The translations under genes and the position numbers were made by a program. Below, one piece after another: positions 36,276 to 52,741 of a DNA stretch of 64,000 nt. The notes beneath the pieces are model-generated. The model was not told the DNA's origin. It saw only the letters and a program-made list of their open reading frames with translations, and did no database searches. Each line of letters opens with the position of its first letter. The first letter of the stretch is position 1. This stretch comes from a virus: IMG/VR virus record IMGVR_UViG_3300014205_000222; one strand, given 5' to 3'.

Positions 36276-36584
36276 ATGACATGCCAAAAATCTTGTGTAC
36301 AGGTTGCACACGCCTCAATAGATTCCTACAGGATATCTAATAAAAAACTTCGGGAATCGTGGTATAACGAAGGGCAAAAAAAAGTTGTCCTAGAGGTAGA
36401 AACTACCCAAGACATTTTAAATCTCGCATCGATTGCAGATGAAAATGACATAGAATATTCAATTATACAAGACATGGGATATACAGAAATTGAACCGGAT
36501 ACCATTACAGCGATTGGATTTGAAATATTACCATCCGAAGAAATAGACAAAATCACAAAAAACTTAAATTTATTTAAATTTTAA
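36276..36584 (+). CDS. pth2: peptidyl-tRNA hydrolase PTH2 family
   Basis: SCVQVAHAS…WYNEGQKKVVLEV…IQDMGYTEIEPDTITAIGF…KNLNLF follows PTH2 conserved blocks; ATG 36276 (listed ORF 36147 over-extended); TATA at 36221-30. Confidence 0.7.
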   Translation: MTCQKSCVQVAHASIDSYRISNKKLRESWYNEGQKKVVLEVETTQDILNLASIADENDIEYSIIQDMGYTEIEPDTITAIGFEILPSEEIDKITKNLNLFKF

Positions 36585-36672
36585 TGAGTCTGTCCGGATT
36601 TGAACCGGAGCGTTTACCCTTCGGTAGCAGATCTTGAGTCTACCGCATTCAACCATGCTCTGCCACAGACTC
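36585..36672 (-). tRNA. tRNA-Leu-CAA: tRNA-Leu(CAA), class II
   Basis: Manual cloverleaf: acceptor GAGUCUG/CAGACUC, T-arm UCCGGUUCAAAUCCGGA, anticodon loop CUCAAGA, long variable arm; abuts pth2 stop. Confidence 0.75.
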
Positions 36673-36759
36673 GCAAAACACTATTGGTTTTACAAATATA
36701 TTAATATTTCTACACAACAATTAAAACCACAAACTCGAAATATGTAACAGCCGATAAAA

Positions 36760-37065
36760 ATGATACTATCACATGACAGATGCGACCACCACCCTGTAAC
36801 ACTCGACGAATCGAACATGACAGTGAAGGAATTAAAAGAGCAAAGAAACTTTCTGAAATTTGTATTCAATATTAAATACAAACAAGAAAATTTAGAAAAC
36901 ATCCGACGTTTGGGATATATCACTCCGCAAGCAGATACAGTTTTTCGATGTGGAAGCAATGGTGCATATATCTGGAAAACAAACCAAGAAGAAATAAAAA
37001 ATTTGATAGACAGAATTTCACTGGAGATAATTAAACGAAATAAAAATATACGAAATAACTTATAG
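36760..37065 (+). CDS. hypothetical protein (101 aa) between tRNAs
   Basis: ORF track; stop overlaps 3' end of next tRNA by 3 nt. Confidence 0.35.
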   Translation: MILSHDRCDHHPVTLDESNMTVKELKEQRNFLKFVFNIKYKQENLENIRRLGYITPQADTVFRCGSNGAYIWKTNQEEIKNLIDRISLEIIKRNKNIRNNL

Positions 37066-37145
37066 GTGTGATGGGATTTGAACCCACATACACTAAAGAC
37101 CGATTTTAAGTCGGTTCCCTAACCAAGTTCGGGATACACACACCC
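37063..37145 (-). tRNA. tRNA-Leu-UAA: tRNA-Leu(UAA)
   Basis: Acceptor GGGUGUG/CACACCU, T-arm GUGGGUUCAAAUCCCAU, anticodon loop CUUAAAA. Confidence 0.7.
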
Positions 37146-37147
37146 AA

Positions 37148-37229
37148 TATGGCTGGTCGGATTCGAACCGACGGCGTTTCCTCGTACGGCGTCTAAAGCC
37201 GCTCCATTCAGCCTCTTTGGTACAGCCAC
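37148..37229 (-). tRNA. tRNA-Leu-UAG: tRNA-Leu(UAG), class II
   Basis: Acceptor GUGGCUG/CAGCCAU, T-arm GUCGGUUCGAAUCCGAC, anticodon loop UUUAGAC, 13-nt variable region. Confidence 0.7.
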
Positions 37230-37235
37230 AATATA

Positions 37236-37436
37236 TCACATCATATTTTGAATTTCCATATATAAACATTTTTTCATTGTATGTCTACGTTTTTTTGACA
37301 ACCACCGTTTAGGTTTTCCTTCCTCCTTAATCAAATTATGACACATCTGCCATCGGTCAAACTGTTTATATTGATGTCTCAACCACAGCATTCCTTTATA
37401 ATGCTGGTAATTATATGCGCGTTTTGTGCGACTCAT
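37236..37436 (-). CDS. small basic protein (66 aa) embedded in tRNA array
   Basis: ORF track; fills the only gap in array. Confidence 0.3.
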   Translation of the reverse strand: MSRTKRAYNYQHYKGMLWLRHQYKQFDRWQMCHNLIKEEGKPKRWLSKKRRHTMKKCLYMEIQNMM

Positions 37437-37464
37437 GTATATTACCTTACATCAATTCCTCCAA

Positions 37465-37553
37465 TGAGTGGGGCAGGATTTGAACCTGCGAGTTTACCCC
37501 TGCGGGACAACCCCCTCAAGATTGCGTCTTCAGCCGAGCTTGACTACCCACTC
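37465..37553 (-). tRNA. tRNA-Leu-GAG: tRNA-Leu(GAG), class II
   Basis: Acceptor GAGUGGG/CCCACUC, T-arm GCAGGUUCAAAUCCUGC, anticodon loop UUGAGGG, variable stem CCCGC/GCGGG-like. Confidence 0.75.
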
Positions 37554-37557
37554 GAAA

Positions 37558-37642
37558 CGCCCCCGTCAGGAATCGAACCTGATACCCCGTTTCATCGGGG
37601 CGACGGTTTTCAAGACCGTTTCACACCATTGCGCTCAGAGGC
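37558..37642 (-). tRNA. tRNA-Ser-UGA: tRNA-Ser(UGA), class II
   Basis: T-arm UCAGGUUCGAUUCCUGA, anticodon stem ACGGU/ACCGU loop CUUGAAA, variable stem CCCCG/CGGGG. Confidence 0.75.
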
Positions 37643-37646
37643 AAAG

Positions 37647-37720
37647 AGCCGGTGGTGGGAGTTGAACCCACAGCCTTCCGCTTACAAGGCGGGTGCACAG
37701 CCAAATTGTGCTTCACCGGC
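37647..37720 (-). tRNA. tRNA-Thr-UGU: tRNA-Thr(UGU)
   Basis: Acceptor GCCGGUG/CACCGGC, D-stem GCAC/GUGC, loop CUUGUAA, T-arm GUGGGUUCAACUCCCAC. Confidence 0.8.
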
Positions 37721-37724
37721 AGAA

Positions 37725-37812
37725 CGCCCCCGGCAGGAATCGAACCTGCACCTGTCAGAAAGACAGCATCCGGGTAGCAACCGGCGGGTATAAACCATTC
37801 TCCCACGGAGGC
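37725..37812 (-). tRNA. tRNA-Ser-GCU: tRNA-Ser(GCU), class II
   Basis: T-arm GCAGGUUCGAUUCCUGC, loop UUGCUAC, variable stem CUGUC/GACAG. Confidence 0.75.
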
Positions 37813-38111
37813 AGTTGAAAAACCAATACAACAACACTTATAGTGTTGTCGAAGACGTACTAAGTAACGGGGTTGACCCTAAAATAGAATAATCGAAAAT
37901 GCACACTCGGACATTAAATCCATTCTGTTTATTTTCCATTTTTATCACATACATATTTCCACTCAAAAGTATATAAATTTAACCCTCGACAAAATATTCC
38001 TCAATTTGCTCTGACCACAAACATATATACTCGCTTGCCTCGCGCGGGGAAATTTCACGGTTGTATATACCAAGCGAAATTCTGTTCATATGATCCAAAA
38101 GGTTTTGTTTT

Positions 38112-38384
38112 TTATCTGGCATTTAGACGACCACCCACAAAATTTTCTCTGTATATCTGTTTCATATGTTCAAACGATGTATACAACACCACAGGAACCG
38201 CAAAAAACAACAATACAAACTCTGGGTCAGCCTCACCAACCAAATTCACAGTAAACAACATCGTATGATTTGGAGAGAAATATGCGCGCATCCATGTGTA
38301 CGCCATTAACAAGATGTATAGCATAGACATCATTGAACCATACAACATTATCGCAGCCCTGATTTTTTGTGAAACTGGAACCAC
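38112..38384 (-). CDS. small membrane protein (90 aa)
   Basis: ORF track. Confidence 0.35.
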   Translation of the reverse strand: MVPVSQKIRAAIMLYGSMMSMLYILLMAYTWMRAYFSPNHTMLFTVNLVGEADPEFVLLFFAVPVVLYTSFEHMKQIYRENFVGGRLNAR

Positions 38385-38601
38385 AACTCAACACTCCTTC
38401 TACAATTTTATAATACAACCTAATTATATTTAAAACTTTTCACTCTAACTTACTACCAGTCTCCCATATAAATTTCCCAAAATAATAAGACATCAGAATA
38501 TCTATTACCAATATTGCAAGCCATTTTATCGCTGGCATTTGTGCAGTTACAAAATCTGTTAAAAACGTTATTTTTATTGCCATAGGTTTCTACCCCGTAA
38601 C

Positions 38602-38907
38602 CTAATCTTCCTCAAAGTCATCATCGTTCTCATACCTATACAATTTATAATTTAACATAAACGTGTAAATACCAATAATTGTAACATTCACAATTAAAAT
38701 TCCCAAAATGTATAAGACATACGCAAGAGATTTTACCACATCAAACGTTGTCCCGCCATACATCATTGTATTGGCATGCATAAAAATGGTAATAAACGCA
38801 AATATATTTGTAATTGAGACAACGACTAGAAAAAATGCTGAAACCCCAATTGGCAACTTTGAACGGATATCCATATCAATCGTTATTTTCAAATGTTGGG
38901 TTATCAT
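38602..38907 (-). CDS. 3-TM membrane protein with acidic C-terminus (101 aa)
   Basis: ORF track. Confidence 0.4.
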   Translation of the reverse strand: MITQHLKITIDMDIRSKLPIGVSAFFLVVVSITNIFAFITIFMHANTMMYGGTTFDVVKSLAYVLYILGILIVNVTIIGIYTFMLNYKLYRYENDDDFEED

Positions 38908-39202
38908 TCATATATTCATTTATTAATTCATCTAACTGCTCTTCATGAATTTTTGCAGTTTTAATATACTCTTCAGTTTTTTCTGACAATTTCCTCTTTA
39001 CACTTTCATCATCACAATTTTCTACAATTTTTTCATAGAATGCAATTCCCTTTGAAACACCAAACTTATCAAAAAACGAATCGATTTTGCGCTGAGCAAC
39101 ATACGAATCTGCAATATGATATGCGACATAAATCAAATATGAACCGAATACACCCATGAAAAAACCTATGTTAAATGACAACAGATCAGTTACGCCAAAC
39201 AT
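38876..39202 (-). CDS. membrane-anchored protein (108 aa)
   Basis: ORF track. Confidence 0.4.
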   Translation of the reverse strand: MFGVTDLLSFNIGFFMGVFGSYLIYVAYHIADSYVAQRKIDSFFDKFGVSKGIAFYEKIVENCDDESVKRKLSEKTEEYIKTAKIHEEQLDELINEYMNDNPTFENND

Positions 39203-39392
39203 GGGTATATATTATAAACGCAAAACTATAAAAAGAAATCGTTGACATATAAGATATAATATATATCAAACCATATAATTTAAAACGTGGTTGGTTTTTT
39301 AAAAAAATAAGATTGCAAAGCGCATTTACTCAAAATAGTCGTAATGTTTAAATACTAAACAAACACCAATATATATAAGGTGATTTACGAAC

Positions 39393-39728
39393 ATGGATGT
39401 AACCAAATTAACTCCACACGGTGCCGATGTTAAAATCGGAGCTGGTGTTGGTATCCAGCCGCAAAACGTTGGTCAGACAGCACATAAAAAACAAAGAAAA
39501 CAAAATAAAACAATGGCAATCCCTTATGCATGCATAAAACGATTGGCACAAAACCAAAGCAGTGGAATGAGAATTTCAAGCGATGCTGTTTTTGTAATTG
39601 AAAAAGCACTCGAAGACTTCTCTGCGAAATTGATAAGTGTTTCGAAATCGTATACAGAACATAGAAACCGCAAGACCATAACATCTCTTGATGTTGATGT
39701 TGCACTAAAAAACATTGCTGAAATGTGA
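39393..39728 (+). CDS. archaeal histone (HMf-like histone fold) with 40-aa basic N-terminal extension (canonical fold starts at Met 39513)
   Basis: …AIPYACIKRLAQNQSSGMRISSDAVFVIEKALEDFSAKLISVSKSYTEHRNRKTITSLDVDVAL… aligns with HMfB (LPIAPIGRII…RVS.DA…HAGRKTI…D); TATA ATATATATAA at 39371-80. Confidence 0.7.
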   Translation: MDVTKLTPHGADVKIGAGVGIQPQNVGQTAHKKQRKQNKTMAIPYACIKRLAQNQSSGMRISSDAVFVIEKALEDFSAKLISVSKSYTEHRNRKTITSLDVDVALKNIAEM

Positions 39729-39738
39729 GAACCACATT

Positions 39739-40224
39739 TCACAACTTTTTTACATTTGTATTACCAAGTGCATCACGGAGTAAAAAATACCAGTGTGTTG
39801 TGGTATTGTGTCCATCTTGCACAGCAAAAGACACAAAATATTTATAAAAATATGATTTAGATACATCAAATGTATAATCAAAATCGTCGTGGTATTCTCC
39901 AGAATACAACTCGTATAACCCACCGCCACGATCCATAGTTCCACCATCCGAGCCATATATTTTCAGTGTTGCTACATCCGCACGGCTATCAAAACTATGT
40001 TTGACAAAAATATAATCCTTTTCATATATAACTTCTAAAACGTTTCCAGAATCATCATCTGTATTATCAACACCGAAAACAAATCCATATAATACGTACC
40101 CAACTCCCAAAATAACAGTAAGAATCAAAAAAAACGAAACGATTCTTAAAAATTTTGTGTACAGCGTAGGCTCATTCAAATCCGGGTCTACAAATTGTAC
40201 TGGGTGTTTAGAACGCACCGTCAT
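39739..40224 (-). CDS. signal-anchored protein (161 aa)
   Basis: ORF track; N-terminal TM. Confidence 0.45.
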   Translation of the reverse strand: MTVRSKHPVQFVDPDLNEPTLYTKFLRIVSFFLILTVILGVGYVLYGFVFGVDNTDDDSGNVLEVIYEKDYIFVKHSFDSRADVATLKIYGSDGGTMDRGGGLYELYSGEYHDDFDYTFDVSKSYFYKYFVSFAVQDGHNTTTHWYFLLRDALGNTNVKKL

Positions 40225-40240
40225 AATACCATAAAATCAA

Positions 40241-40732
40241 TTATACACACTGAATGTTTCCCTTGCGGAAATCATCTGCATCTTCTTCTTCCGCCTTGCG
40301 CTTTTTTCTTCCCAAAAACGAAAACAAACCGCGCTTTTTCTTTTTCGGTTTCGGTTGTTTAGAAGTTTCGGAAGGTTCAACCCCAAACAATGGCTGCAAC
40401 TCTCCCCATTTATCTGGTTGGGTTGGTCTCTGCCCGCGCGCAGGATTCACCTGTTCTTGATGCGGTTGCGGAAATTCGTTATTTTGTTGGTTATCTTCTG
40501 CAAACAAATCAAAAACTTCTTTTACCGACAACCGCTTTTGTGAAGTTCCTATATATGGTTGATATGTTTCATTAAACTCTTCATCTGATAAAATTATTTG
40601 TTCTCCTTCTGGAGTATTTACAAGCCACTCCCCTTCTTTAGCTTCGATATCATCACCATTTTCACCAGCAACTAATATATCTTCTTTCATTCTCACCGCA
40701 TCGACAACGACGGGTTTTTGCATATATTTCAT
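40241..40732 (-). CDS. hypothetical acidic/basic-tailed protein (163 aa)
   Basis: ORF track; C-terminal KPKKKKRGLFSFLGRKKRK. Confidence 0.45.
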   Translation of the reverse strand: MKYMQKPVVVDAVRMKEDILVAGENGDDIEAKEGEWLVNTPEGEQIILSDEEFNETYQPYIGTSQKRLSVKEVFDLFAEDNQQNNEFPQPHQEQVNPARGQRPTQPDKWGELQPLFGVEPSETSKQPKPKKKKRGLFSFLGRKKRKAEEEDADDFRKGNIQCV

Positions 40733-40786
40733 ACCATATATACTATACCGCCAAATCCTTAAAATACTTGCGGGTTATGACACAAA

Positions 40787-40859
40787 CGCCCCCGCCGCGA
40801 TTTGAACGCGGATCTTACGGGTTAGAAGCCCGATAGGATGTCCATTACCCCACGGAGGC
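40787..40859 (-). tRNA. tRNA-Arg-UCU: tRNA-Arg(UCU)
   Basis: Acceptor GCCUCCG/CGGGGGC, loop CUUCUAA, T-arm CCGCGUUCAAAUCGCGG. Confidence 0.75.
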
Positions 40860-40946
40860 AGGGTATATATTTATTTTACAGATATAAAAACATTTCACAA
40901 AATTCAAAAAGCATTATATAGTTCGCCCAAACAAAGCACCGGGTTA

Positions 40947-40979
40947 AATATATATAATTTAAACACACAACACACTGTC
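40947..40979 (+). promoter_or_regulatory. conserved leaderless promoter AAATATATATAATTTAAACACACAAC (copy 1)
   Basis: TATA ~25 nt upstream of ATG 40980; near-identical copy at 41567-41597. Confidence 0.5.
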
Positions 40980-41345
40980 ATGGATAACGACAAACACTTT
41001 GACATAAATACACAAGATGCAATTTTGTGGAACAAATTCCACATTGATTTAATCAGAGAATGTATTGGGAAAACTGATAATATCAATGAACCTCTATGCA
41101 GACATGTTGATATTATTTCCAGAGAACTGGCATTGAAAGGTATTCAAATATGTCGCGTGTGTGGAAAACCACTTCCATCCGGTGAAGGCAGATTCAACGA
41201 TCATCTGGTATTAAAACACGAAATGTGCATCCAACCAATATGTATTGCATGCTCAAAAACAAACCCCGATGCATTCCACTGTGCGTTTGAAAACGGCGTG
41301 AATAGATACAAAAATGTAATCAAATCCATTTACCCACGCGGTTAG
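40980..41345 (+). CDS. Cys-rich protein (121 aa)
   Basis: ORF track; CRVCGKPLPSGE…CIACSK. Confidence 0.45.
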   Translation: MDNDKHFDINTQDAILWNKFHIDLIRECIGKTDNINEPLCRHVDIISRELALKGIQICRVCGKPLPSGEGRFNDHLVLKHEMCIQPICIACSKTNPDAFHCAFENGVNRYKNVIKSIYPRG

Positions 41346-41347
41346 AG

Positions 41348-41539
41348 ATGAACAAAAACAAAAAAATTATAGCACCCATCAAATGCCCTGTGTGCGGGTC
41401 TGATATTATATCACACGGTATTGTATGGAGATGCACCACGCGGGGTTGTGTTTTTGTAGCCCCAAGACGATGTAAACACGACCCATCCGGCTATACCCTT
41501 GCACCCAACACAGAGTATTGGAAACAGTATCGTCGTTAA
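41348..41539 (+). CDS. zinc-ribbon protein (63 aa)
   Basis: ORF track; CPVCGS…CTTRGC. Confidence 0.45.
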   Translation: MNKNKKIIAPIKCPVCGSDIISHGIVWRCTTRGCVFVAPRRCKHDPSGYTLAPNTEYWKQYRR

Positions 41540-41566
41540 AATAATAAATTTAATTTTATTGCAAAG

Positions 41567-41597
41567 ACATATATAATTTAAACACAAAAACTTATAT
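41567..41597 (+). promoter_or_regulatory. conserved leaderless promoter ACATATATAATTTAAACACAAAAAC (copy 2)
   Basis: TATA ~24 nt upstream of cca ATG 41598. Confidence 0.5.
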
Positions 41598-43028: not shown

Positions 43029-43100
43029 TCCCGACCAGATTCGAACTGGTGTTTCAAGCTCCAGAGGCTTGTGTGCTTGACCAAACTACACTACGGGACT
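43026..43100 (-). tRNA. tRNA-Gln-CUG: tRNA-Gln(CUG)
   Basis: Acceptor AGUCCCG/CGGGACU, loop CUCUGGA, T-arm ACCAGUUCGAAUCUGGU; overlaps cca stop codon. Confidence 0.7.
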
Positions 43101-43104
43101 ACAA

Positions 43105-43174
43105 TGGGGATAGTGCGAATTGAACACACATCGCCCGGTTTGGAGCCGAGGTTCTTACCATTAGAGATATCCCC
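43105..43174 (-). tRNA. tRNA-Trp-CCA: tRNA-Trp(CCA)
   Basis: Acceptor GGGGAUA/UAUCCCC, loop CUCCAAA, T-arm GUGUGUUCAAUUCGCAC; short D-arm. Confidence 0.65.
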
Positions 43175-43176
43175 AA

Positions 43177-45256: not shown

Positions 45257-45919
45257 TCAATATGAATTTGCTATCTGCAATTTTGATTGGAAGTATTCAC
45301 CGGTATCTACATTCATTGCGGTCAATTTACCATTCCATCCCGCACCGGTATCCATAAGAGTAAGATTTCCAATTGTTAGTGGTTTTGTGTCCTTTGTTAT
45401 GAATTGTGTTGTTGTGTGACCAATAAATATATGCGGATAATCGACAACATTTCCATCGAGAATATAGTTTATCAACTGCCTATCCCATACTAATGTTTCC
45501 AAATCATTATATTCTACTTTTTTCGTAGGGTTAAACCCACCGTGTACATATACACGTCCTTTGGAGTCTATGTAATATGGTTTTCCAGATTCAAGAAACT
45601 TTATGTGGCTGTCCGGGACACTTTTATATGAAAAACCATACGCGCGCATGGTTGCAAGTCCACCCTGATGAACCCACACAGGAAGTTCGATTCCGGTTTT
45701 CATCCAGTTCAATGCCCATAAATCGTGGTTTCCAATAACCAATATACAATTCTTAATTTTTAAAAGTTCTTCGATTACTTTCTGTGTGTCATATCCACCA
45801 TCAACAACATCACCTAAAACGATAAGTGTGTCACGGTCATAATCAAAAGACATCTTTTCAATTACTTCGCACAGAGCAACAAAACGCCCATGTATATCGC
45901 CAATAACATAAACACACAT
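45257..45919 (-). CDS. calcineurin-like metallophosphoesterase (lambda PPase / ApaH-like)
   Basis: GDIHGR, LGDVVDGG, GNHD motifs in order (PPP-family motifs I-III). Confidence 0.7.
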   Translation of the reverse strand: MCVYVIGDIHGRFVALCEVIEKMSFDYDRDTLIVLGDVVDGGYDTQKVIEELLKIKNCILVIGNHDLWALNWMKTGIELPVWVHQGGLATMRAYGFSYKSVPDSHIKFLESGKPYYIDSKGRVYVHGGFNPTKKVEYNDLETLVWDRQLINYILDGNVVDYPHIFIGHTTTQFITKDTKPLTIGNLTLMDTGAGWNGKLTAMNVDTGEYFQSKLQIANSY

Positions 45920-45945
45920 AAATAACCAACACCGTGTTAAAAAGT

Positions 45946-47472
45946 TTAAATTTTTGTTGTTGGGATTTTGAAATTTTCAATTTCCTGTATCATTGTCTCG
46001 CGGTTTGTCTCGAAGAGGCTTATATAATTGAATATCTTATCACTGTATCCAGCAACATTAACTACATTTTTATGACCTTCTGGTAACGTTGCAAGCCCAT
46101 ATCCTGCGAGATCTACAAGATACACGAACACATTTGGATTTATATTCCTCTGATATTTTAGAAACTCTTTTACAAATGATTCTGAACCATATGCCGATGT
46201 ATTATACAGCACCATATCACTGAAAAGCACAACCCGGTCAACAAACTTTTTGTTATCGTTGAGATACCGAATTGCCTTCCAACCATTTGTAGAGTGCCCA
46301 AGATGCTGTTCTGTAACACTTTCGATATTCTGTAATATTGAGCTGCCACCCATTGGGATAACCGCAAAATCTGTTCCAAATGCTGAAATAATAGATTTTG
46401 TCGATATATAATCCAATATAGACCCGTACAGAGATGCAACCTGCGCGCGAGATACCACAGATTTTTCACTGAGGGCAACCGTCATACTACCACTAACATC
46501 AATCGATGTAAATGTGATACCACCAAGTTTTGGAACATTATTTAAACTAATTTGTAGAGCCTTCTCCAAGCCTTTCAAAACCACATTAACGTTTTCCGTT
46601 GCTACATCGTATTTTCTAGTTTTTACAATAGAATGCGCCGTATAAAACCTGTATGGGAATTGTTTTGATGACCGTATGGCACGTTCATCTACAATGCGCG
46701 ACATATAAAGTTCTGGTTCGATTCCAAACTTAAGAAAATTATTTAGATTACGGAGTAGCGCCATATACCCCATGTCGGGGATTTCCTTTTCCCAATTTTC
46801 TTTGGTAGAACCTTCACGCATTATGTTAGCATTCCACGACGAATTAACAACCTTTTTGTTGATAATTCTTTCAAAGACATCAGCCATATCCTTATTCAGC
46901 GGTTTTGGGTGGACGACGCACATCGCGTCTTTAAGGCTTACACTCGACCCATCACCGAGATACTTACCAAACTGATACTCATCGAAATTATAAAAAGCGC
47001 GTGATAAACCCTTTTTAAGAACCATTGGTACATGTGCACGAGCCTTTTCATTATGCGAATTCAACTGAAACTGATACGCCAGCATTTCAGTAATTTCGTC
47101 AGGTCTCTGAATTGTAGAGGTAACAATTTTACTAAAATCGTTGTGACCTTTGCCAGACGGAAGATTTGCAGCTTCCACTAACAACATGATAGGAACGGTA
47201 CGAAGATACAAGTTGTGGCGCACATATGCCGCAAGATTAAACACAAACTTCGGGTCTAATTCGGTGACTTCTCGGATTAAGTCTTTAAGTTCTTTATCCG
47301 ATTGTGTAGCACTGGTATAAAACTTTGGCTCACCGACCATTGCAGATGCAACACGAAGGTAAAGTTCCAATTTCTTTGACACATTAAACGCGATTCCGCC
47401 TTCAAAATTAGTTGTTACATCGCCACGTGATTCTAAAACGCTTGTTGTCGTTTTTTTCGTATTAAACTTCAT
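45946..47472 (-). CDS. rsr: Ro60/Rsr-like TROVE-domain RNA-binding protein with C-terminal vWA/MIDAS
   Basis: 508 aa; N-terminal …NFEGGIAFNVSKKLELYLRVASAMVGEPKFYTS… resembles TROVE start (N.AGG.AF…RL.RFLILGS…TYY); C-terminal DVSGSM MIDAS motif; AAGGTG SD upstream. Confidence 0.65.
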   Translation of the reverse strand: MKFNTKKTTTSVLESRGDVTTNFEGGIAFNVSKKLELYLRVASAMVGEPKFYTSATQSDKELKDLIREVTELDPKFVFNLAAYVRHNLYLRTVPIMLLVEAANLPSGKGHNDFSKIVTSTIQRPDEITEMLAYQFQLNSHNEKARAHVPMVLKKGLSRAFYNFDEYQFGKYLGDGSSVSLKDAMCVVHPKPLNKDMADVFERIINKKVVNSSWNANIMREGSTKENWEKEIPDMGYMALLRNLNNFLKFGIEPELYMSRIVDERAIRSSKQFPYRFYTAHSIVKTRKYDVATENVNVVLKGLEKALQISLNNVPKLGGITFTSIDVSGSMTVALSEKSVVSRAQVASLYGSILDYISTKSIISAFGTDFAVIPMGGSSILQNIESVTEQHLGHSTNGWKAIRYLNDNKKFVDRVVLFSDMVLYNTSAYGSESFVKEFLKYQRNINPNVFVYLVDLAGYGLATLPEGHKNVVNVAGYSDKIFNYISLFETNRETMIQEIENFKIPTTKI

Positions 47473-47514
47473 TTAATTCACACCTTGGAGATAAGCTACC
47501 ACACATGTTTTAAA

Positions 47515-47841
47515 TGGATTTCATTGAATGATAACAGTTTTTTCAGTCATATGGTTTGTCCGCCCGGACATAATATGTTCAAGTCCAATCCACCCCACAT
47601 ATTATTTTTGCAGGATTTCATCGAATTATAACAGGGTTTTCAGTCGGTTATAGGAAATAATATCACTTGGTAATGCGATGAACCCACAACCTGCGCATCC
47701 CTGCTTACTGGGAGAACTTATGAACGACTTAAACTTAAACTTAATCTATAACGCATTTCGGTGGGTTTTCAGACGAACATGGCAAAATACCTTGTTTAGA
47801 GGTAGAGTTCCACAATGATGAAACCACGTTCTGCGCATCCC
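47515..47841. repeat. tandem imperfect repeats in rsr-upstream noncoding region (candidate Y-RNA-like ncRNA genes)
   Basis: Units 47634-47701 and 47763-47841 share termini GGGUUUUCAG[UA]C … GAUGAA[CA]CCAC…CUGCGCAUCCC; extra copies of GGATTTCAT[TC]GAAT[GT]ATAACAG at 47515 and 47613; degenerate unit ~47536-47600. Confidence 0.55.
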
Positions 47842-47959
47842 ACTCCAATGCAACAATATTATTGTGTAACTAATAGTATATATACATTTCCAAACATTTC
47901 ACGAAAAGCATGTAAAAATTACACATATGCAGATATTATCAACCCGCACGTTAAAAAAA

Positions 47960-48289
47960 TTAATTTGTTGGAGGGTCGGCGCGCGTGTCAAGTTCCATTT
48001 TCTTTTCTAAATCTGAACCAGATTTATATGATAAAACCGCAAATGCGCCACCGAAGATTAACAAAAACAACCCTTGCGCCGTAAATACAAATACACTGTT
48101 AGCTGACACACCACCAGATGAAATTGCCGCAGCAACAAATGCCAGCATCACAATTCCCAAAAGCACAAAAATCAACCCTACCCCGGTCAACATGGCAAAC
48201 AGACTCATACGCATGTTGTCATTTTTTTCATTATCATAATCACGTATTTCTTCATATACGATTTCGCGAATTTTCTTTGCTTTAACCAT
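47960..48289 (-). CDS. 2-TM membrane protein (109 aa)
   Basis: ORF track. Confidence 0.4.
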   Translation of the reverse strand: MVKAKKIREIVYEEIRDYDNEKNDNMRMSLFAMLTGVGLIFVLLGIVMLAFVAAAISSGGVSANSVFVFTAQGLFLLIFGGAFAVLSYKSGSDLEKKMELDTRADPPTN

Positions 48290-48497
48290 ACATATTATAT
48301 ACGTAAAAACAAACTTAAAAACATTTCGTTAATTTTTCAAAAATTTTGTGATACTTTCAACTTCCTTGAAACTACATGCCGGAACATTAAACACAGCCCC
48401 ACACATGTTACAACGAATTCCTTTTTTACCACCGTGATCCCCATAGTGGAATGATATATCGTCACTCTTACAGTTTACACACAATATCAAAATCATT

Positions 48498-48860
48498 TTA
48501 TCGTGATGGGGCTGTAGGAATATTCAACTGTTTATTATATTCATCAGGGCACTGGCAATACGCATATATTATCTTATCCGAAGTATCAAAACCATCGAAA
48601 AACACCATATTGTTAAAATCTGTGTAACCACATTCAAAACACTCTTCACGAGATTCTATACAGGAATAATAATGCGGGGCAACGCGCGTGTCATATAGTT
48701 CAATAAACCAACCGTCGTCACACATGGTTAACAAATCATACAACCGAACCCAACCGCTAAACGCCGGAGAAATGTTGTTATTCTTCAGGCTATCCACAAA
48801 ACCGGGTTTTGCAAACTTATCTGTATCCTTCTTCAAATAAACACATCCTTTTAACCACAC
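48498..48860 (-). CDS. Cys-containing hypothetical protein (120 aa)
   Basis: ORF track. Confidence 0.4.
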   Translation of the reverse strand: MWLKGCVYLKKDTDKFAKPGFVDSLKNNNISPAFSGWVRLYDLLTMCDDGWFIELYDTRVAPHYYSCIESREECFECGYTDFNNMVFFDGFDTSDKIIYAYCQCPDEYNKQLNIPTAPSR

Positions 48861-48876
48861 CAGTTTGGTTGTGGGA

Positions 48877-48948
48877 TGGGCGTTAAGGGAGTCGAACCCA
48901 TATCCTCACGGTTATGAGCCGTGCGCTCCGCCATTGAGCTAAACGCCC
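48877..48948 (-). tRNA. tRNA-Met-CAU: tRNA-Met(CAU), elongator-like (G1-C72)
   Basis: Acceptor GGGCGUU/AACGCCC, D-stem GCUC/GAGC, loop CUCAUAA, T-arm AUGGGUUCGACUCCCUU. Confidence 0.75.
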
Positions 48949-48958
48949 CAATTTGAAA

Positions 48959-49032
48959 TGGGACTTCCCGGATTTGAACCGGGGGCAACACGTCCCAAAC
49001 GTGCAAGGTTAGCCAGACTACCCCAAAATCCC
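48959..49032 (-). tRNA. tRNA-Pro-UGG: tRNA-Pro(UGG)
   Basis: Acceptor GGGAUUU/AAGUCCC, loop UUUGGGA (G37), T-arm CCCGGUUCAAAUCCGGG. Confidence 0.7.
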
Positions 49033-49098
49033 TCAATATAGTATTGAAATGGAAAATATTTATACCTTTCGTTTTTCAAAAAAATAAAGTTTGTTTTT

Positions 49099-50643
49099 TT
49101 ATTTTTTAGAGGTTTTCGCAGTTTTCTTTACAAAACCATCGACACCCTGATTTGAAGATTCAACCGATTTTATATCAACCGGAGACGGAACCGTTCCACT
49201 AACTGGCGGCTGTGGTTGTGGTGGTGTTACTACAGTTGCTTTTTTTGTATCGTCTACATACGAACCCTTCGAAGGTTCTGGCGCGGTTGCAGGTTTTTTA
49301 ATAATGGTTTGCATCACGTTTGCCAACCGGGAATACAGATCCGGGTCAGATTCCTTAACAATATCCATCAGGGTTGAAAAACTGCCAGCCGTTGATAGCC
49401 CGCCCTTCGGAGTGAAGAGATCCATGAAGTCTTCTGGTTTTCCAGAACCATAATATTTTATAGTTGCATTCGCAAGTGCCTCTGCAAGTGCAAGACCAAT
49501 ACGCTCATCCTTTTCAATCGTACGGATTGCCGTTGCATATTCCTGCTGTTTTCTCTGTGCATCTGCATATTTGTCAAGACCTTCTGCCTCTGCGAATTTC
49601 TTGGCTCTTAATACATCGGCTTCGGATGTACCTTTCTTACGAATAATTTCGGCTTCGGCAGAACCCATTGCCTCAATTTTCGCACCTTCTCCGCGACCTG
49701 TAAGTTCAAGTTTCTGTTTTTCTCCTTCTGCAAGTTCAATTGCCATGCGCTTTTCTCCATCGGCAGTACGAACTTTGGCATCTGCTTCAATTTCCGCAAA
49801 CATGACTTTAGATGCTCGCTCAACATCCATCGCTTTCTCTACCGCGCGTTTCTTTTCTGTAGAAACTACCTGATTCTTTTCTTCTTCGCGCTTGCCAACA
49901 GATTCTTCAACTTCAATCTTTCTCGTTTGTGCAGCCTGATAAGCTTCTACCTCTGAAATTTCTGCCTGTCTCTTTCTGGTTGCAATCTCCTGTCTAGACA
50001 ACGAATTAATTTCTGCCTCTTTTTTTGCAGATATATCATGAATTACGCTTGTATGATCAGAATCTTTGAAATCTACAATCGAAACGTTGATAATTTCGAC
50101 ACCCCAACGAAGCATATCATCTTTAATATCTGACAACACATGGTCTGCAATCTCGCTTCGCTTTGCAATTACATCCTCAACTGCAAAATTAGCAGTTGTC
50201 TTACGAATAGCGGCAATAATGATTTCCTGAATCCCGGTCTTGAAATCTGTCATAGTTTTCCCCGGGAAACGCTGGGCTGCTTCTAAAACATTGTTGACAC
50301 GACAATAAACACTAGCATCAATAGTAAACCGCGCATTTCCTTTTGCAAAAGTTTGATAATTCTCAATCTTAATTTCCATATTTTCAAGCGACATGCGGGT
50401 TACAATAACACCAATGAATGGCATCCACCACGGAAACTGATAATACACCGTGTTTGTACCACGCTCTTCAGTAACCGTTTTATCTGCGGAATAAATTTCA
50501 ACAGCGCCCTTACGCGTAACAACATCTGCATATTTTGGTGGCACAACTCCCCTGAGAGTTACTAGATAAATAACCACCAACACTGCAAAAATACAACCCA
50601 TCACAAACAGAAACGATGTCTGCAAATCCATATCAAAAATCAT
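49099..50643 (-). CDS. SPFH/band-7 (flotillin-like) membrane-scaffold protein
   Basis: N-terminal TM, SPFH-like core, long EA/KR coiled-coil (…EAEINSLSRQEIATRKRQAEI…), Pro-rich tail; 514 aa like YqiK/flotillin. Confidence 0.65.
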   Translation of the reverse strand: MIFDMDLQTSFLFVMGCIFAVLVVIYLVTLRGVVPPKYADVVTRKGAVEIYSADKTVTEERGTNTVYYQFPWWMPFIGVIVTRMSLENMEIKIENYQTFAKGNARFTIDASVYCRVNNVLEAAQRFPGKTMTDFKTGIQEIIIAAIRKTTANFAVEDVIAKRSEIADHVLSDIKDDMLRWGVEIINVSIVDFKDSDHTSVIHDISAKKEAEINSLSRQEIATRKRQAEISEVEAYQAAQTRKIEVEESVGKREEEKNQVVSTEKKRAVEKAMDVERASKVMFAEIEADAKVRTADGEKRMAIELAEGEKQKLELTGRGEGAKIEAMGSAEAEIIRKKGTSEADVLRAKKFAEAEGLDKYADAQRKQQEYATAIRTIEKDERIGLALAEALANATIKYYGSGKPEDFMDLFTPKGGLSTAGSFSTLMDIVKESDPDLYSRLANVMQTIIKKPATAPEPSKGSYVDDTKKATVVTPPQPQPPVSGTVPSPVDIKSVESSNQGVDGFVKKTAKTSKK

Positions 50644-50645
50644 AT

Positions 50646-50864
50646 TTATACCGTCCTTTTACTCATCAACTTCACACTTCCATCATTCACTTGTGGGGAA
50701 TTGTTAGGTGTCAACAATTCGGAAACTTCGCAATCTCCGTCCCTCCAAGTGAGAAGAATTATTTTACCATTTGAAATATCATCATAAAAATCAAGCAAAT
50801 CTTTTTTACTTGCAAAAACAATTTTATCTGATGTTTTTTCTATTACTCTGACTTCATTTGTCAT
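50646..50864 (-). CDS. small protein (72 aa), possible NfeD-like partner of SPFH protein
   Basis: ORF track; immediately upstream/co-transcribed with SPFH gene; partner assignment is inference. Confidence 0.35.
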   Translation of the reverse strand: MTNEVRVIEKTSDKIVFASKKDLLDFYDDISNGKIILLTWRDGDCEVSELLTPNNSPQVNDGSVKLMSKRTV

Positions 50865-51134
50865 ATTTGTTCAACCGTCCAAACCATTACGGACAACAAT
50901 GGTATTCTAACATCTTTCCCGTCACAATTCATAGATAAAATCAATCCATGTGCTTCACCGCCATACCGTGTGGCGTTATATGTTTCTCGAACACCATTTG
51001 TCCACGTAACCTCAACTCGATACACTAATACACCTTCAAAAAATGCACATTGTCATAAATGAAATACAATCATGCACTAACATTATAATTTGATATTAAA
51101 ACTATAAAAACATATCCAAACAAAAAAGTTAAAG

Positions 51135-51206
51135 GGGAGATGGAGGGGATTGAACCCTCTCCAGCGCGGTCACAGCGCGCCGTGCTACCAATACACCACA
51201 TCTACC
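51135..51206 (-). tRNA. tRNA-His-GUG: tRNA-His(GUG) with genomically encoded G-1
   Basis: Anticodon stem GCGCG/CGCGC loop CUGUGAC, T-arm GAGGGUUCAAUCCCCUC, 8-bp acceptor incl. G-1:C73 (one U.C mismatch). Confidence 0.7.
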
Positions 51207-51209
51207 ACA

Positions 51210-51289
51210 AGCACTGGGCAGGAATCGAACCTGCAACCCACATGGAGCAGATCTGCAATCTGCCGCAATATCCATTCTGCCACCAGTGC
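51210..51289 (-). tRNA. tRNA-Cys-GCA: tRNA-Cys(GCA) with unusually long (12-nt) variable region
   Basis: Acceptor GCACUGG/CCAGUGC, D-stem GCAG/UUGC, loop UUGCAGA, T-arm GCAGGUUCGAUUCCUGC. Confidence 0.6.
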
Positions 51290-51296
51290 AATTTGA

Positions 51297-51368
51297 CGCC
51301 CCTGATGGGAATTGAACCCATTTCTTCAGGTTCGAAGCCTGATATGCGTTCCGGTGCACCACAGAGGC
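51297..51368 (-). tRNA. tRNA-Arg-UCG: tRNA-Arg(UCG)
   Basis: Acceptor GCCUCUG/CAGGGGC, anticodon stem UCAGG/CCUGA loop CUUCGAA, T-arm AUGGGUUCAAUUCCCAU. Confidence 0.75.
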
Positions 51369-51400
51369 AGTGCATATACTATATATTCAAACCACTATAT

Positions 51401-52000
51401 TTATTTTTTTGTGTTCTGTCGTTTTTTCTTTGGAGTTGGTGCTTTTAAACGTCGCTCATTTATCAGTTTCGTATCTAAAATCTTTAATTTTTTCGGGTCA
51501 AATGCAATAAGATGTTTAACACCACCATGTTTTTGTATGAGAACCCCATCGTAGCCCAAGCTTACCATATTTTTAAGATATACTTCTGGCTCATCCCTAT
51601 AAAAATCATAAGACACAGTTTGAAATGCATCATGAGCCGTCTGATTATATGTTAAAATTAATCTATATGCATTTTCAAACGCTGGAACGTGTCTATCTGT
51701 ATCAAAATTTGTCAGGGTGTCTTCTAAATTTGGCGCACGAATCAACATCTTTCGAATATCCCCATGGTTGGGGGGGCGTGTAGTTGACACAAATTTTCTA
51801 ACTGTTGCTCGTACAACCATAATATATTTTCCATACATACGAGCATCATCTATCGTATTTGTTAAATAGAACCCATAACCCTCCTGTTCAGTTCCTTTCC
51901 CAAGATATTTATATTCAAATTCTCTGAATGGAACATTTGAACCATGATAAAATAATTCTGAATACAACACATATAAATATATGTTACAATAATATATCAA
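51401..52000 (-). CDS. hypothetical protein (199 aa) with basic C-terminal tail
   Basis: ORF track; no confident family (weak resemblance to ADP-ribosyl/phosphotransferase folds not supportable). Confidence 0.45.
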   Translation of the reverse strand: MIYYCNIYLYVLYSELFYHGSNVPFREFEYKYLGKGTEQEGYGFYLTNTIDDARMYGKYIMVVRATVRKFVSTTRPPNHGDIRKMLIRAPNLEDTLTNFDTDRHVPAFENAYRLILTYNQTAHDAFQTVSYDFYRDEPEVYLKNMVSLGYDGVLIQKHGGVKHLIAFDPKKLKILDTKLINERRLKAPTPKKKRQNTKK

Positions 52001-52005
52001 ATTTT

Positions 52006-52167
52006 CTAATCGTTATGTTTTGACGATATAATTTTAGGGCATAATTCTTCGGTTAAAACATATTGGCAATTGTATTTCCCGCCATTTTGTTCCAGTTGGT
52101 TCTCAAAACACTTTTCACACGATAAAACAATTTTTCGAATAATATCACAATTTATATCACTTATCAT
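52006..52167 (-). CDS. small Cys-rich protein (53 aa; listed ORF start 52218 overlaps tRNA)
   Basis: Internal Met MISDINCDIIRKIVLSCEKCFEN…; ends 3 nt before tRNA-Gly. Confidence 0.35.
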   Translation of the reverse strand: MISDINCDIIRKIVLSCEKCFENQLEQNGGKYNCQYVLTEELCPKIISSKHND

Positions 52168-52169
52168 AA

Positions 52170-52240
52170 TACGAGCGGCGGGCATCGAACCCACACCTGT
52201 TCCATGGCAAGGAACCATTCTACCATTATACTACACTCGT
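52170..52240 (-). tRNA. tRNA-Gly-GCC: tRNA-Gly(GCC)
   Basis: Acceptor ACGAGUG/CGCUCGU, anticodon stem GUUCC/GGAAC loop UUGCCAU, T-arm GUGGGUUCGAUGCCCGC. Confidence 0.65.
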
Positions 52241-52243
52241 ATA

Positions 52244-52316
52244 TGCGCCCAGCCGGGTTTGAACCGGCATCTATAGGTTGGAAGCCTATAATTCTAACCA
52301 ATTATACCATGAGCGC
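52244..52316 (-). tRNA. tRNA-Gly-UCC: tRNA-Gly(UCC)
   Basis: Acceptor GCGCUCA/UGGGCGC, anticodon stem AUAGG/CCUAU loop CUUCCAA, T-arm GCCGGUUCAAACCCGGC. Confidence 0.7.
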
Positions 52317-52319
52317 ACA

Positions 52320-52393
52320 TGGACGTGAGAGGACTTGAACCTCTAACCCCTGCTGTATCAGAACAGTGCGCTAACCAATTGCGCCACACGTCC
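52320..52393 (-). tRNA. tRNA-Ile-GAU: tRNA-Ile(GAU)
   Basis: Acceptor GGACGUG/CACGUCC, D-stem GCGC/GCGC, loop CUGAUAC, T-arm AGAGGUUCAAGUCCUCU. Confidence 0.8.
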
Positions 52394-52396
52394 TAA

Positions 52397-52468
52397 CGTC
52401 CGGTGCGGGTACTGCCCCCGCCTCATAACCGTGACAGGGTTATATGCTGTCTAATACACCAACCGAAC
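52397..52468 (-). tRNA. tRNA-Asp-GUC: tRNA-Asp(GUC) with non-canonical T-loop (GGCAGUA)
   Basis: Acceptor GUUCGGU/ACCGGAC, D-stem GUGU/GCAU, anticodon stem UAACC/GGUUA loop CUGUCAC, T-stem GCGGG/CCCGC but loop lacks U54-U55; keeps the array's 3-nt spacing. Confidence 0.55.
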
Positions 52469-52471
52469 AAA

Positions 52472-52537
52472 ATGGGTGGTGCCGGAGTTGAACCCAACAC
52501 TTTTACCACCATGGGTGGATCAATCCCCATGGCACCC
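52472..52537 (-). pseudogene. degenerate tRNA-like element
   Basis: Correct 3-nt spacing; T-loop UUCAACU and 3' ACCACCC-A but T-stem and acceptor pair poorly (5/7); only ~66 nt. Confidence 0.3.
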
Positions 52538-52668
52538 ACGGAGCATCCCTAATACAATACGCATGTATTTCCGTCTTTTACGTGCATGCATCCGGAAACA
52601 CGGCAAGATCGTTGTCGGGTCTTGTACCGCCATACAATAAGATTGCGACTCTTTGCATTGTATGGAAA

Positions 52669-52741
52669 TCCTCCCGGAAGGATTCGAACCTTCTTCGCCG
52701 GATTCAAAGTCCTGCATCATTACCAAGTAGACCACGGGAGT
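52669..52741 (-). tRNA. tRNA-Gln-UUG: tRNA-Gln(UUG)
   Basis: T-arm GAAGGUUCGAAUCCUUC, loop CUUUGAA, D-region GGUCUACUUGGUAAUGAU like eukaryal/archaeal tRNA-Gln; acceptor (A)CUCCCG/CGGGAG(G) with first-pair mismatch. Confidence 0.65.

Follow-up and report, generated by a model that had tools for sequence, protein, structure and literature searches.

The window analysed here, a 64,000-nucleotide (nt) stretch of the virus record IMGVR_UViG_3300014205_000222, carries an island of transfer RNA (tRNA) genes interleaved with genes for tRNA-related and RNA-binding proteins. The 64-kb window was identified by sequence identity as part of contig Ga0378408_0000108 (181,586 bp), and the identical sequence was also present in one ENA assembly and two SRA assemblies. 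About 100 kb of this 181.6-kb contig was readable, namely the window and about 36 kb of flanks, and within it the tRNA genes were confined to the island. A total of 31 tRNA genes for all 20 amino acids were located at 36585-52742, within 16.2 kb and all on the minus strand, together with genes for a class II tRNA nucleotidyltransferase of the CCA-adding type with an HD domain, a Pth2 peptidyl-tRNA hydrolase, a Ro60 protein, a lambda-phosphatase-type metallophosphoesterase and a HAD-superfamily phosphatase. A preliminary description of the window had already named these proteins, and all of them were recovered by hidden Markov model (HMM) searches, the HAD match being borderline. The tRNAs were on the minus strand, as that description had stated, whereas the CCA and Pth2 genes are on the plus strand, and the start that it gave for the region, 36276, falls inside the Pth2 gene.

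ARAGORN reported 28 tRNAs, and 30 were found above the gathering score of the Rfam model RF00005, the Rfam-only genes being Lys(CTT) (43252-43325) and Arg(GCG) (44962-45038). The anticodon of Arg(GCG) was read from the covariance-model alignment, and ARAGORN runs with introns or relaxed thresholds were used only to name Lys(CTT); the other extras of those runs were rejected because they contained kb-long "introns" or lay inside open reading frames (ORFs). The thirty-first gene, tRNA-Asp(GTC) (52398-52468, 71 nt), was missed by both programs and appeared as the one perfect site in a scan for the loop CTGTCAC with a closing stem of 5 bp. The gene folds at minimum energy into a cloverleaf and lies 4 nt upstream of tRNA-Ile. 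It is non-canonical, with a weak D-arm and the T-loop GGCAGUA instead of UUCRANN, and it escapes both programs because this T-loop lacks the universal UUCRA. In the related 21.9-kb contig L013, whose primase and Ro60 are 83% and 59% identical to those of the window, two acceptor pairs of the Asp gene are changed (C4-G69 to U-A and U3.G70 to C-G) while the T-loop is unchanged. With the 30 Rfam genes and this hand-found one, the count of 31, the 20 amino acids and the redundancy (4 Leu, 3 Arg and 2 each of Ser, Val, Lys, Gly, Gln and CAU) agreed with the preliminary description.

With gene ends taken from Rfam, the spacers within arrays measured 2-10 nt and the genes fell into eight arrays and four single genes; the tight packing was as first described, but the numbers then given (seven arrays, 2-7 nt spacers) were not. 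A single tRNA-Leu(CAA) gene (36585-36672), detected by ARAGORN and Rfam, follows a TATA-like box at 36697-36709, and an exact AAATGTTTATATA box (37259-37271) precedes the array Leu(TAG) (37147-37230) and Leu(TAA) (37063-37143) at 37063-37230. The array at 37465-37813 is composed of Ser(GCT) (37724-37813), Thr(TGT) (37646-37720), Ser(TGA) (37557-37643) and Leu(GAG) (37465-37553), in an order kept in L013. Single tRNA-Arg(TCT) (40786-40860) again has a TATA-like box (40883-40895). Next to the CCA gene and beyond it lie the array Lys(CTT), Val(GAC) (43176-43249), Trp(CCA) (43104-43175) and Gln(CTG) (43024-43101) at 43024-43325, the array CAU "b" (43732-43808) and Lys(TTT) (43659-43731) at 43659-43808, and single tRNA-Val(TAC) (43985-44056), also found by both programs. 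The largest array (44733-45192) holds six genes, Ala(TGC) (45118-45192), Tyr(GTA) (45040-45116), Arg(GCG), Phe(GAA) (44887-44958), Asn(GTT) (44808-44882) and Glu(TTC) (44733-44804), and its order is kept in L013, as is that of Arg(TCG) (51295-51369), Cys(GCA) (51210-51289) and His(GTG) (51134-51205) at 51134-51369. The remaining units are Pro(TGG) (48959-49032) with CAU "a" (48877-48948) at 48877-49032, Asp(GTC) with Ile(GAT) (52320-52393), Gly(TCC) (52243-52317) and Gly(GCC) (52169-52241) at 52169-52468, and single tRNA-Gln(TTG) (52668-52742). Boxes matching AAATGTTTATATA with at most 2 mismatches stand 23-44 nt upstream of several tRNA units, of a histone gene and of the Y-RNA-like genes described below; 20 matches were counted against 10 expected, and none of 100 shuffles reached 20.

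Between tRNA-Gln and tRNA-Asp, a conserved non-coding stretch was recognised at 52473-52667 (minus strand; L013 counterpart 3035-3308), for which no Rfam match was found. Its 3' part (52473-52548, 76 nt) adopts a tRNA-like fold without D-arm, consisting of an acceptor-like stem, a 7-bp stem-loop and a T-arm-like hairpin with GUUCAA, at a weak z of -0.8. In L013, the stretch shows one compensatory pair and an extra GC-UUCG-GC mini-hairpin at the variable-arm position.

None of the tRNA genes encodes the 3' CCA. The tRNA-Tyr has C1-G72 and a short variable arm, and the L013 orthologue of tRNA-Gln(TTG) has A1-U72. C1-G72 in tRNA-Tyr and A1-U72 in tRNA-Gln are archaeal, not bacterial, identity features, and bacterial tRNA-Tyr has a long variable arm and G1-C72. 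The two CAU tRNAs could not be told apart as initiator, elongator Met or Ile2; neither shows the A1-U72 of archaeal initiators, and "b" carries C33 in place of the universal U33. One of them may be tRNA-Ile2, because AUA makes up 41% of the Ile codons of the element. Opposite the intron-less CAU "a" of the window, L013 has a 150-nt Rfam tRNA match (6633-6782) that is ARAGORN-negative, which suggests an intron or insertion in that tRNA.

Codon coverage was judged by simple wobble rules. The tRNA set reads 52 of the 61 sense codons, or 53 if one CAU tRNA is tRNA-Ile2, and covers 89.5% of the codon usage of the element, whose G+C content at third codon positions (GC3) is 0.32. The four-codon boxes are served by species with U at position 34 (U34) and by four G34 species, with no C34, and the U34 tRNAs match favoured codons (CCA 0.48, ACA 0.51, CAA 0.61 and AAA 0.78); this choice fits the A/U-ending bias of the element. 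Since G34 tRNAs are absent for four codon boxes, the set is near-complete rather than complete. In proxy loci from Methanomicrobiales, GC3 was 0.62, and CCA, ACA, CAA and AGA were used two to four times less than in the element. Codon supply would matter most with a GC-rich host.

The nucleotidyltransferase gene (41598-43028, plus strand) encodes PolyA_pol (PF01743, 3.8e-20), PolyA_pol_RNAbd (PF12627, 1.2e-7) and HD (PF01966, 23.9 bits against a cut-off of 22) domains, and the motifs GGFPRD, DIDIE, RRDFTINAL, DDPLR and H...HD are all intact in its translation. It matched phrog_2244 (tRNA nucleotidyltransferase) at 9.8e-66, and its best NCBIfam matches were CCA families, every one under the equivalog cut-off; CCA addition rather than poly(A), A or CC addition is the predicted specificity. 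Members of its own clade are 63-65% identical and lie on contigs of up to 202 kb, and a wider clade at 44-48% identity includes a protein labelled Thermoplasmatota. The nearest named homologues beyond its own clade are from Firmicutes (about 40-45% identity). In three relatives (L105-L107), a Ser/Leu tRNA array directly follows the CCA gene. Both termini of the enzyme (41598-41700 and 42985-43028) form Lys/Arg-rich tails, for example KKRIIKRKKR, which are not present in the aligned solved bacterial enzymes, and the 3' end of the gene overlaps the opposite-strand tRNA-Gln(CTG) by a few bases.

The Pth2 gene (36207-36584, plus strand) converges on tRNA-Leu(CAA) and encodes the archaeal/eukaryotic type of peptidyl-tRNA hydrolase (PF01981, 1.3e-30; TIGR00283, 96.7 bits against a curated cut-off of 82). 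Its nearest named homologues, at 43-49% identity, are from ANME-1, Methanoperedens and Methanosarcinales. The HAD-superfamily phosphatase (44110-44649, minus strand) was a borderline NT5C match (25.8 bits against 24.8); phrog_420 was matched at 1.4e-14 and, weakly, phrog_415 "polynucleotide kinase" at 9.7e-11, with no P-loop kinase domain. Both an NT5C-like deoxynucleotidase and a polynucleotide 3'-phosphatase-like enzyme are possible identities. No RNA ligase (RtcB or Rnl) was found in the window or the flanks by the Pfam families of the called genes and by our own scans, nor was anything found by tblastn with the RtcB of the haloarchaeal virus HGTV-1 as query, and no polynucleotide 5'-kinase domain was found in the same sequence.

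At the centre of the island, the Ro60 gene (45946-47472, minus strand) encodes a TROVE plus vWA RNA-binding protein (Pfam TROVE 2.1e-23; vWA_Ro60 23.1 bits, under the cut-off of 27.7). Its nearest solved structure is the Ro60 of Thermus phage phiLo (PDB 9KOP/9L5Y, 1.1e-25), and outside its own small clade it is about 40% identical to proteins of bacterial metagenome-assembled genomes (MAGs). The bacterial type that had been proposed for both the CCA enzyme and Ro60 was thus upheld. Directly downstream lies the metallophosphoesterase (45257-45919, minus strand; Metallophos 1.7e-15) of the PPP/NinI-like type. Its best solved homologue is lambda phosphatase (PDB 1g5b, 1.5e-10, full length); it matched phrog_246 at 4.3e-50 and, in a multidomain phage family with the annotation RNA ligase, the phosphoesterase portion. 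The phosphoesterase follows Ro60 in five of five lineages, starting 5-26 nt after the Ro60 stop, and its orthologues are 50-57% identical between lineages with the motifs GDIHG, GDVVDGG and GNHD intact.

Upstream of Ro60, the preliminary description had overlooked a pair of Y-RNA-like genes. When the 487-nt gap upstream of Ro60 was aligned with the corresponding gaps of L013 and a further relative, L014, a conserved TATA-like box was seen, followed by a conserved element. A covariance model (R1) was built from five copies of the element, and exactly two matches were obtained in the window, both of the short form and on the minus strand: gene 1 at 47758-47845 (82.9 bits, with a minimum-energy fold) and gene 2 at 47629-47705 (78.1 bits), whose minimum-energy fold is stem, internal loop and stem (z = -2.98). 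The TATA/BRE-like box (47877-47889, minus strand) stands 32-44 nt upstream of gene 1 and is conserved in L013 and L014. The genes lie 157-373 nt upstream of the Ro60 start on the same strand, and two copies are found in the window and in L013. The ends of the element pair (GUGGG/CCCAC and GAACGUGG/CCAUGUUC), and the internal loop has AUGCG(C/U/A)AG on one side and G.UGAWAA on the other; the loop carries AUGCGNAG. R1 also found two sequences outside the training set, one in L102 (52 bits) and one in L100 (48 bits), each upstream of Ro60, so that the family stands upstream of Ro60 in five lineages. No R1 match was obtained in the HGTV-1 TROVE locus or in an unrelated Ro60 phage.

The proposed structure was examined by covariation. 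RNAalifold gave 18 pairs, compensatory changes being present at 8, and among seven distinct sequences 92.8% of the pair cells were standard, compared with 33-49% when the partners were slid; none of 500 shuffles reached the observed values. Folds of single sequences agreed with the consensus of stem, loop and stem. A T-arm-like hairpin is present in the long forms of L013 and L102, and the L013 form gave a sub-threshold Rfam tRNA match over model positions 7-64 (24.2 bits against 29), reminiscent of the tRNA mimicry of YrlA. In Rfam searches at E<=1 on the island and E<=10 on the upstream region of Ro60, no Y RNA, YrlA or other family was matched. The loop motif of the family is CG(C/U/A)AG, and CGAA is exact only in the L014 copy. 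Bacterial and phage Y RNAs are encoded on the same strand as Ro60 and within 4 kb of it, often as two copies upstream, and contain a CGAA-related loop motif (PMC4201824, PMC12135203). The RNAs described here share the architecture and the genomic position of these Y RNAs. Archaea are not mentioned in the two Y RNA papers (PMC4201824, PMC12135203) returned by a limited literature search.

The layout of the island was compared with its relatives. In L013 the order is Gln, the non-coding stretch, Asp-Ile-Gly-Gly, Arg-Cys-His, an SPFH gene, Pro-Met, the Y-like RNAs, Ro60, the phosphoesterase, Ala-Tyr-Arg-Phe-Asn, Glu, the histone gene, Ser-Thr-Ser-Leu, Leu and Leu, the same as in the window. Missing from L013 is a block made up of seven or eight tRNAs (Val, CAU, Lys, Lys, Val, Trp, Gln and possibly Arg(TCT)) together with the HAD and CCA genes, and the island therefore grows and shrinks by blocks. 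Because the arrangement of Y-like RNA(s), Ro60 and phosphoesterase recurs in five lineages, it was regarded as a conserved cassette; it is also found on contigs with few tRNAs nearby, L100 and L014.

The carrier of the island has the style of a viral genome, with small ORFs on one strand; the left third of the window is made up of such ORFs without known match. The island is followed on the right by genes for a PrimPol/DUF3987 primase-helicase, a Cas4-like exonuclease, a DEAD helicase (2e-77 to phrog_16) and an AAA_24 ATPase (phrog_1366, 6e-79; 44-49% identity to phage proteins), and a PCNA gene lies to its left, which bore out the viral-type replication module described earlier as flanking the region. 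The primase was also matched among PHROGs. Beyond the right end of the window, very large PKD, Kelch and Gly-rich proteins are encoded, with tail-fibre-like matches to phrog_2295 (9e-57) and phrog_863, a "tail fiber assembly" annotation among them, and a match to phrog_2045 (3e-50) in the same flank search. The sister contig Ga0172380_10005447 extends the readable sequence by 7.4 kb of PKD-repeat proteins, and a further 10 kb of flank consists of small unknown ORFs. No housekeeping genes were seen on the element, and the earlier view that the arrangement is not cellular was sustained by the 181.6-kb contig, the small one-strand ORFs, the phage-type replication genes and the tail-fibre-like protein. 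No match was obtained by megablast of the island against 50,697 phage records, and no relatives by IMG/VR scans with Ro60 and with the primase-helicase. PADLOC gave no defence-system match, and a reading as a defence island was rejected on the basis of these zero matches.

The archaeal setting proposed earlier was likewise supported, by the tRNA-Tyr features, the TATA-like boxes and the archaeal-type proteins of the element, namely a histone-fold protein, PCNA, Pth2 and a DUF3821 surface protein with a PGF-CTERM anchor. The nearest cellular homologues of the surface protein are from MAGs of Methanomicrobiales/Methanoregulaceae; when it was used as query against species-representative genomes, only homologues of that gene were returned. 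Judged from gene content and genome style, the carrier is very likely a large virus-like element of at least 181.6 kb and probably a tailed virus, and a methanogenic or methanotrophic euryarchaeon from the Methanomicrobia, broadly defined, is its most likely host. Given the phage-type genes together with the archaeal features, the locus is therefore considered a virus-type translation-support island and not a cellular locus.

Three further genes lie inside the island. An SPFH/Band_7 (flotillin-like) protein is encoded at 49099-50643 (minus strand; Band_7 6.1e-24), with an orthologue of 66% identity at the same place in L013, and an ART-PolyVal ADP-ribosyltransferase, a possible host-takeover enzyme, at 51401-52000 (minus strand; PF18760, 4.2e-11). 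The histone-fold protein (39393-39728, plus strand; 111 aa with an N-terminal extension) has its own TATA-like box at 39342-39354 and is about 70% conserved in L013; a virus-encoded archaeal histone is itself unusual.

Outside the island, plus-strand ORFs to the left give way to minus-strand ORFs to the right at about 10,700-11,000, and the GC skew changes sign and the cumulative skew peaks at the same point. This is a point of divergent transcription and possibly a replication origin or terminus. The surface protein (857 aa) is located with a GT2/GtrA glycosyltransferase and a PMT_2 mannosyltransferase-like protein in the regions 24537-27084 and 31073-33646 (minus strand), and these envelope-type genes could remodel the cell surface, for example for superinfection exclusion. 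The closest homologue of the surface protein (46% identity) lies on contig L097 (JBAZKI010000010.1, 47 kb), which is labelled as a Patescibacteria MAG and is probably a mis-binned relative of the element or of its host. A small serine recombinase (19018-19551, minus strand), with a Resolvase domain and matches to phrog DNA invertase or integrase, may allow the element to invert a segment or integrate. The 12-nt tandem repeat GGAGCCTGTTGA occurs in 11.8 in-frame copies at 59948-60089, within a 431-aa protein of the replication module (ORF 59743-61038, minus strand), and the independent ENA assembly of the element stops at about 60032, within this repeat.

Based on these features, the island is interpreted, with moderate confidence, as a system for tRNA supply combined with 3'-end maturation, healing and quality control in a virus-like element. 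The arrays would be transcribed as short polycistrons from TATA promoters, cut by host RNase P and RNase Z and finished by the element's own class II CCA-adding enzyme, and viral protein synthesis would become independent of a mismatched, depleted or attacked host tRNA pool. A Ro60-Y ribonucleoprotein (RNP) would perform RNA surveillance, 2',3'-cyclic-phosphate or 3'-phosphate ends would be healed and CCA re-added with no ligase needed, and Pth2 would release tRNAs stuck in peptidyl- or N-blocked aminoacyl form. Hydrolysis of 2',3'-cyclic phosphates is an activity of both lambda phosphatase and the HD domain of the E. coli CCA enzyme. The HD, PPP and HAD phosphoesterases, whose substrates are predicted, would form with the CCA enzyme a coherent ligase-free route for tRNA 3'-end healing. 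It is tentatively proposed that the Y RNA tethers Ro60 to the phosphoesterase, rather than to PNPase as in bacteria, and that the two form with the HD-bearing CCA enzyme a ligase-independent line of tRNA 3'-end surveillance and repair.

Several points weigh against the interpretation as tRNA supply and maintenance. The codon mismatch was derived from 13 genes in two Methanomicrobiales loci, which is a weak proxy, and the argument becomes weaker if the host is AT-rich. The pointers to the host disagree at order level, the surface protein leading to Methanomicrobiales and Pth2 to Methanosarcinales or ANME. The two Y-like RNAs of the window are without a tRNA-like domain and without an Rfam Y RNA match, and their loop motif is CG(C/U/A)AG, not the published GNCGAA. 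Processing of the tRNAs, CCA addition, RNA binding by Ro60 and the substrate of the phosphoesterase are all predicted from the sequence, the HAD protein may be a plain deoxynucleotidase, and the SPFH and ART proteins stand in the island without an assigned role.

The closest rival is counter-defence as the main purpose, in which host tRNAs cut by anticodon nucleases or by other defences aimed at tRNA would be replaced by those of the element, and the enzymes would repair the damage. A redundant, near-complete set exceeds the needs of a few rare codons, three types of phosphoesterase (HD, PPP and HAD) with a CCA enzyme suit end healing, Pth2 could free blocked aminoacyl-tRNAs, an ART enzyme lies inside the island, and the concept is established for jumbo phages (PMC7824862). 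However, self-contained repair against anticodon nucleases, as put forward in the preliminary description, is not supported by the genes seen: neither RtcB, Rnl nor a polynucleotide kinase was found in the window or the flanks, and breaks in the anticodon loop could therefore not be resealed by the island alone. No host nuclease is known for this system, and the choice of anticodons tracks the element's own codon bias, so that codon supply alone would explain it. The lack of a ligase or kinase is the reason why supply, maturation and quality control were ranked first, with counter-defence kept as a live rival that is possible rather than probable. It is also conceivable, but in our judgement unlikely, that the cassette of Ro60, Y-like RNAs and phosphoesterase is unrelated to the tRNAs, and either hijacks or blocks a host RNA-decay enzyme, as has been proposed for phiLo Ro60 and PNPase, or contains the Y-like elements as cis-regulatory 5'-leaders of the Ro60 mRNA. 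Together with Yrl1 and Yrl2, the phiLo Ro60 enters complexes with the PNPase of its host (PMC12135203). The stretch from a single TATA-like box to the Ro60 start codon contains the Y-like RNAs of the window and no clear terminator, and the cassettes of L100 and L014 have few tRNAs nearby. In the window and L013, however, the cassette is placed centrally within the tRNA island, and the long forms of L013 and L102 carry a tRNA-like core (tRNA model positions 7-64, 24 bits). As archaea, to our knowledge, lack PNPase, the mechanism of phiLo could not be copied as such.

The viral and archaeal nature of the carrier was weighed in the same way. The roughly 100 kb read showed no gene for a capsid, portal or terminase protein, and for this reason the word "virus" rests on the replication genes, the tail-fibre-like genes and the genome style. 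This absence counts against our reading and in favour of a plasmid, a Borg-like extrachromosomal element or a cellular chromosome, as do the host-like genes (PGF-CTERM surface protein, glycosyltransferases, histone and PCNA) and the existence of large Methanoperedens plasmids and extrachromosomal elements. A non-viral origin nevertheless appears improbable in view of the strong PHROG matches of the replication genes and the tail-fibre-like protein, the lack of housekeeping genes and the scan of species-representative genomes, in which the surface protein found only homologues of its own gene. Borgs have pervasive tandem repeats, whereas four tandem-repeat arrays were counted in the 64-kb window, and HMp plasmids have an Orc1/Cdc6 marker and either no tRNA genes (v1 and v2) or three (v5), against 31 tRNAs here; no Orc1/Cdc6 was found among the called genes. 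Identity with a Borg or an HMp plasmid was rejected on account of the few tandem repeats, the other gene content and the many more tRNAs. A bacteriophage with acquired archaeal genes would account for the CCA enzyme, Ro60 and AAA_24 ATPase, whose closest named homologues are in bacteria and phages. It is, however, highly improbable when the tRNA-Tyr with C1-G72 and a short variable arm, the A1-U72 of the L013 tRNA-Gln, the TATA-like rather than sigma-70-type promoters and the archaeal histone, PCNA, Pth2 and PGF-CTERM are considered.

The kind of island is already known, as HGTV-1 and the jumbo phages precede it and class II CCA enzymes and Ro60 occur in 510 and 101 records, respectively, of the phage collection. 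Among archaeal viruses, a near-complete tRNA set with tRNA-finishing enzymes is given in PMC8651126 for the haloarchaeal isolate HGTV-1 alone. HGTV-1 (Halomagnusviridae) is an archaeal tailed virus with tRNA arrays (36 genes, all 20 amino acids) and a TROVE/Ro60 protein whose E-value was the best in the phage collection; a CCA-adding enzyme has been reported for it, and it has other tRNA enzymes. It differs in its halophile host and 50% GC, and its RtcB, two Rnl2 ligases and LysRS have no counterpart in the sequence read here. The nucleotidyltransferase beside its TROVE gene is not homologous to the class II enzyme, and neither a lambda-type phosphoesterase nor a Y-like RNA match was found at that locus. 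The Ro60 of the window is nearer to bacterial and phage proteins (about 40%) than to that of HGTV-1 (31% identity, 2e-70). Jumbo phages combine many tRNAs with CCA-adding enzymes, peptidyl-tRNA hydrolase and HD, calcineurin-like and HAD phosphoesterases, and some of them add a TROVE protein that is partnered by a tRNA-like RNA (Iyer et al. 2021, PMC7824862). They are, however, bacterial viruses that usually have RtcB or Rnl ligases and polynucleotide kinase, neither of which was seen here, and the tRNAs, promoters and several proteins of the element are archaeal.

For the cassette, the nearest models are Rsr with YrlA/YrlB and phiLo Ro60 with Yrl1/Yrl2, in which one or two small RNA genes also lie upstream of Ro60 on the same strand. 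The likeness extends to the long stem formed by the RNA ends, the conserved internal loop and the tRNA-like core in the long forms of the relatives. The loop is AUGCG(C/U/A)AG instead of GNCGAA, with no Rfam Y RNA match, and in the long form the Ro-type stem replaces the acceptor stem, unlike in bacterial and phage Y RNAs. The partner gene encodes a PPP phosphoesterase, not RtcB/RtcA as in bacterial Ro60 modules. The CCA enzyme has the head, body and HD order of the multifunctional CCA addition/repair enzyme of E. coli (NF008137, 1.5e-45), but scored 155.7 against the equivalog cut-off of 451 and has basic terminal extensions. A class II nucleotidyltransferase is also found in Acidianus tailed spindle virus (31.7% identity over 76% of the protein), a crenarchaeal spindle virus that is no known relative of the element. 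Apparent novelties are the lineage, for which the searches of the phage and IMG/VR collections gave no match, the host group, which is not halophilic, the Y-like RNA family, its conserved cassette with Ro60 and the phosphoesterase, and the conserved non-canonical tRNA-Asp.

It is well documented that giant bacteriophages carry near-complete tRNA sets along with tRNA-finishing enzymes, and the same strategy is now seen in an archaeal lineage of the anaerobic methane cycle, with an island layout kept across diverged relatives. The recurrent AAATGTTTATATA-type boxes provide candidate promoters of an uncultivated archaeal virus. The Y-like RNA family, always paired with Ro60 and the phosphoesterase, is a concrete and testable component, and the lack of PNPase in archaea offers a way to ask what a Ro60 RNP does without its only known bacterial effector. 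It also allows a test of whether the healing of tRNA 3' ends is a battlefield in archaeal virus-host conflicts. If the proposed line of 3'-end surveillance and repair is true, the archaeal virosphere would have its first described Ro60-Y RNA system, built on an RNA family not in Rfam, and archaeal viruses would keep their own tRNA pool chargeable while host or virus damages tRNA ends.

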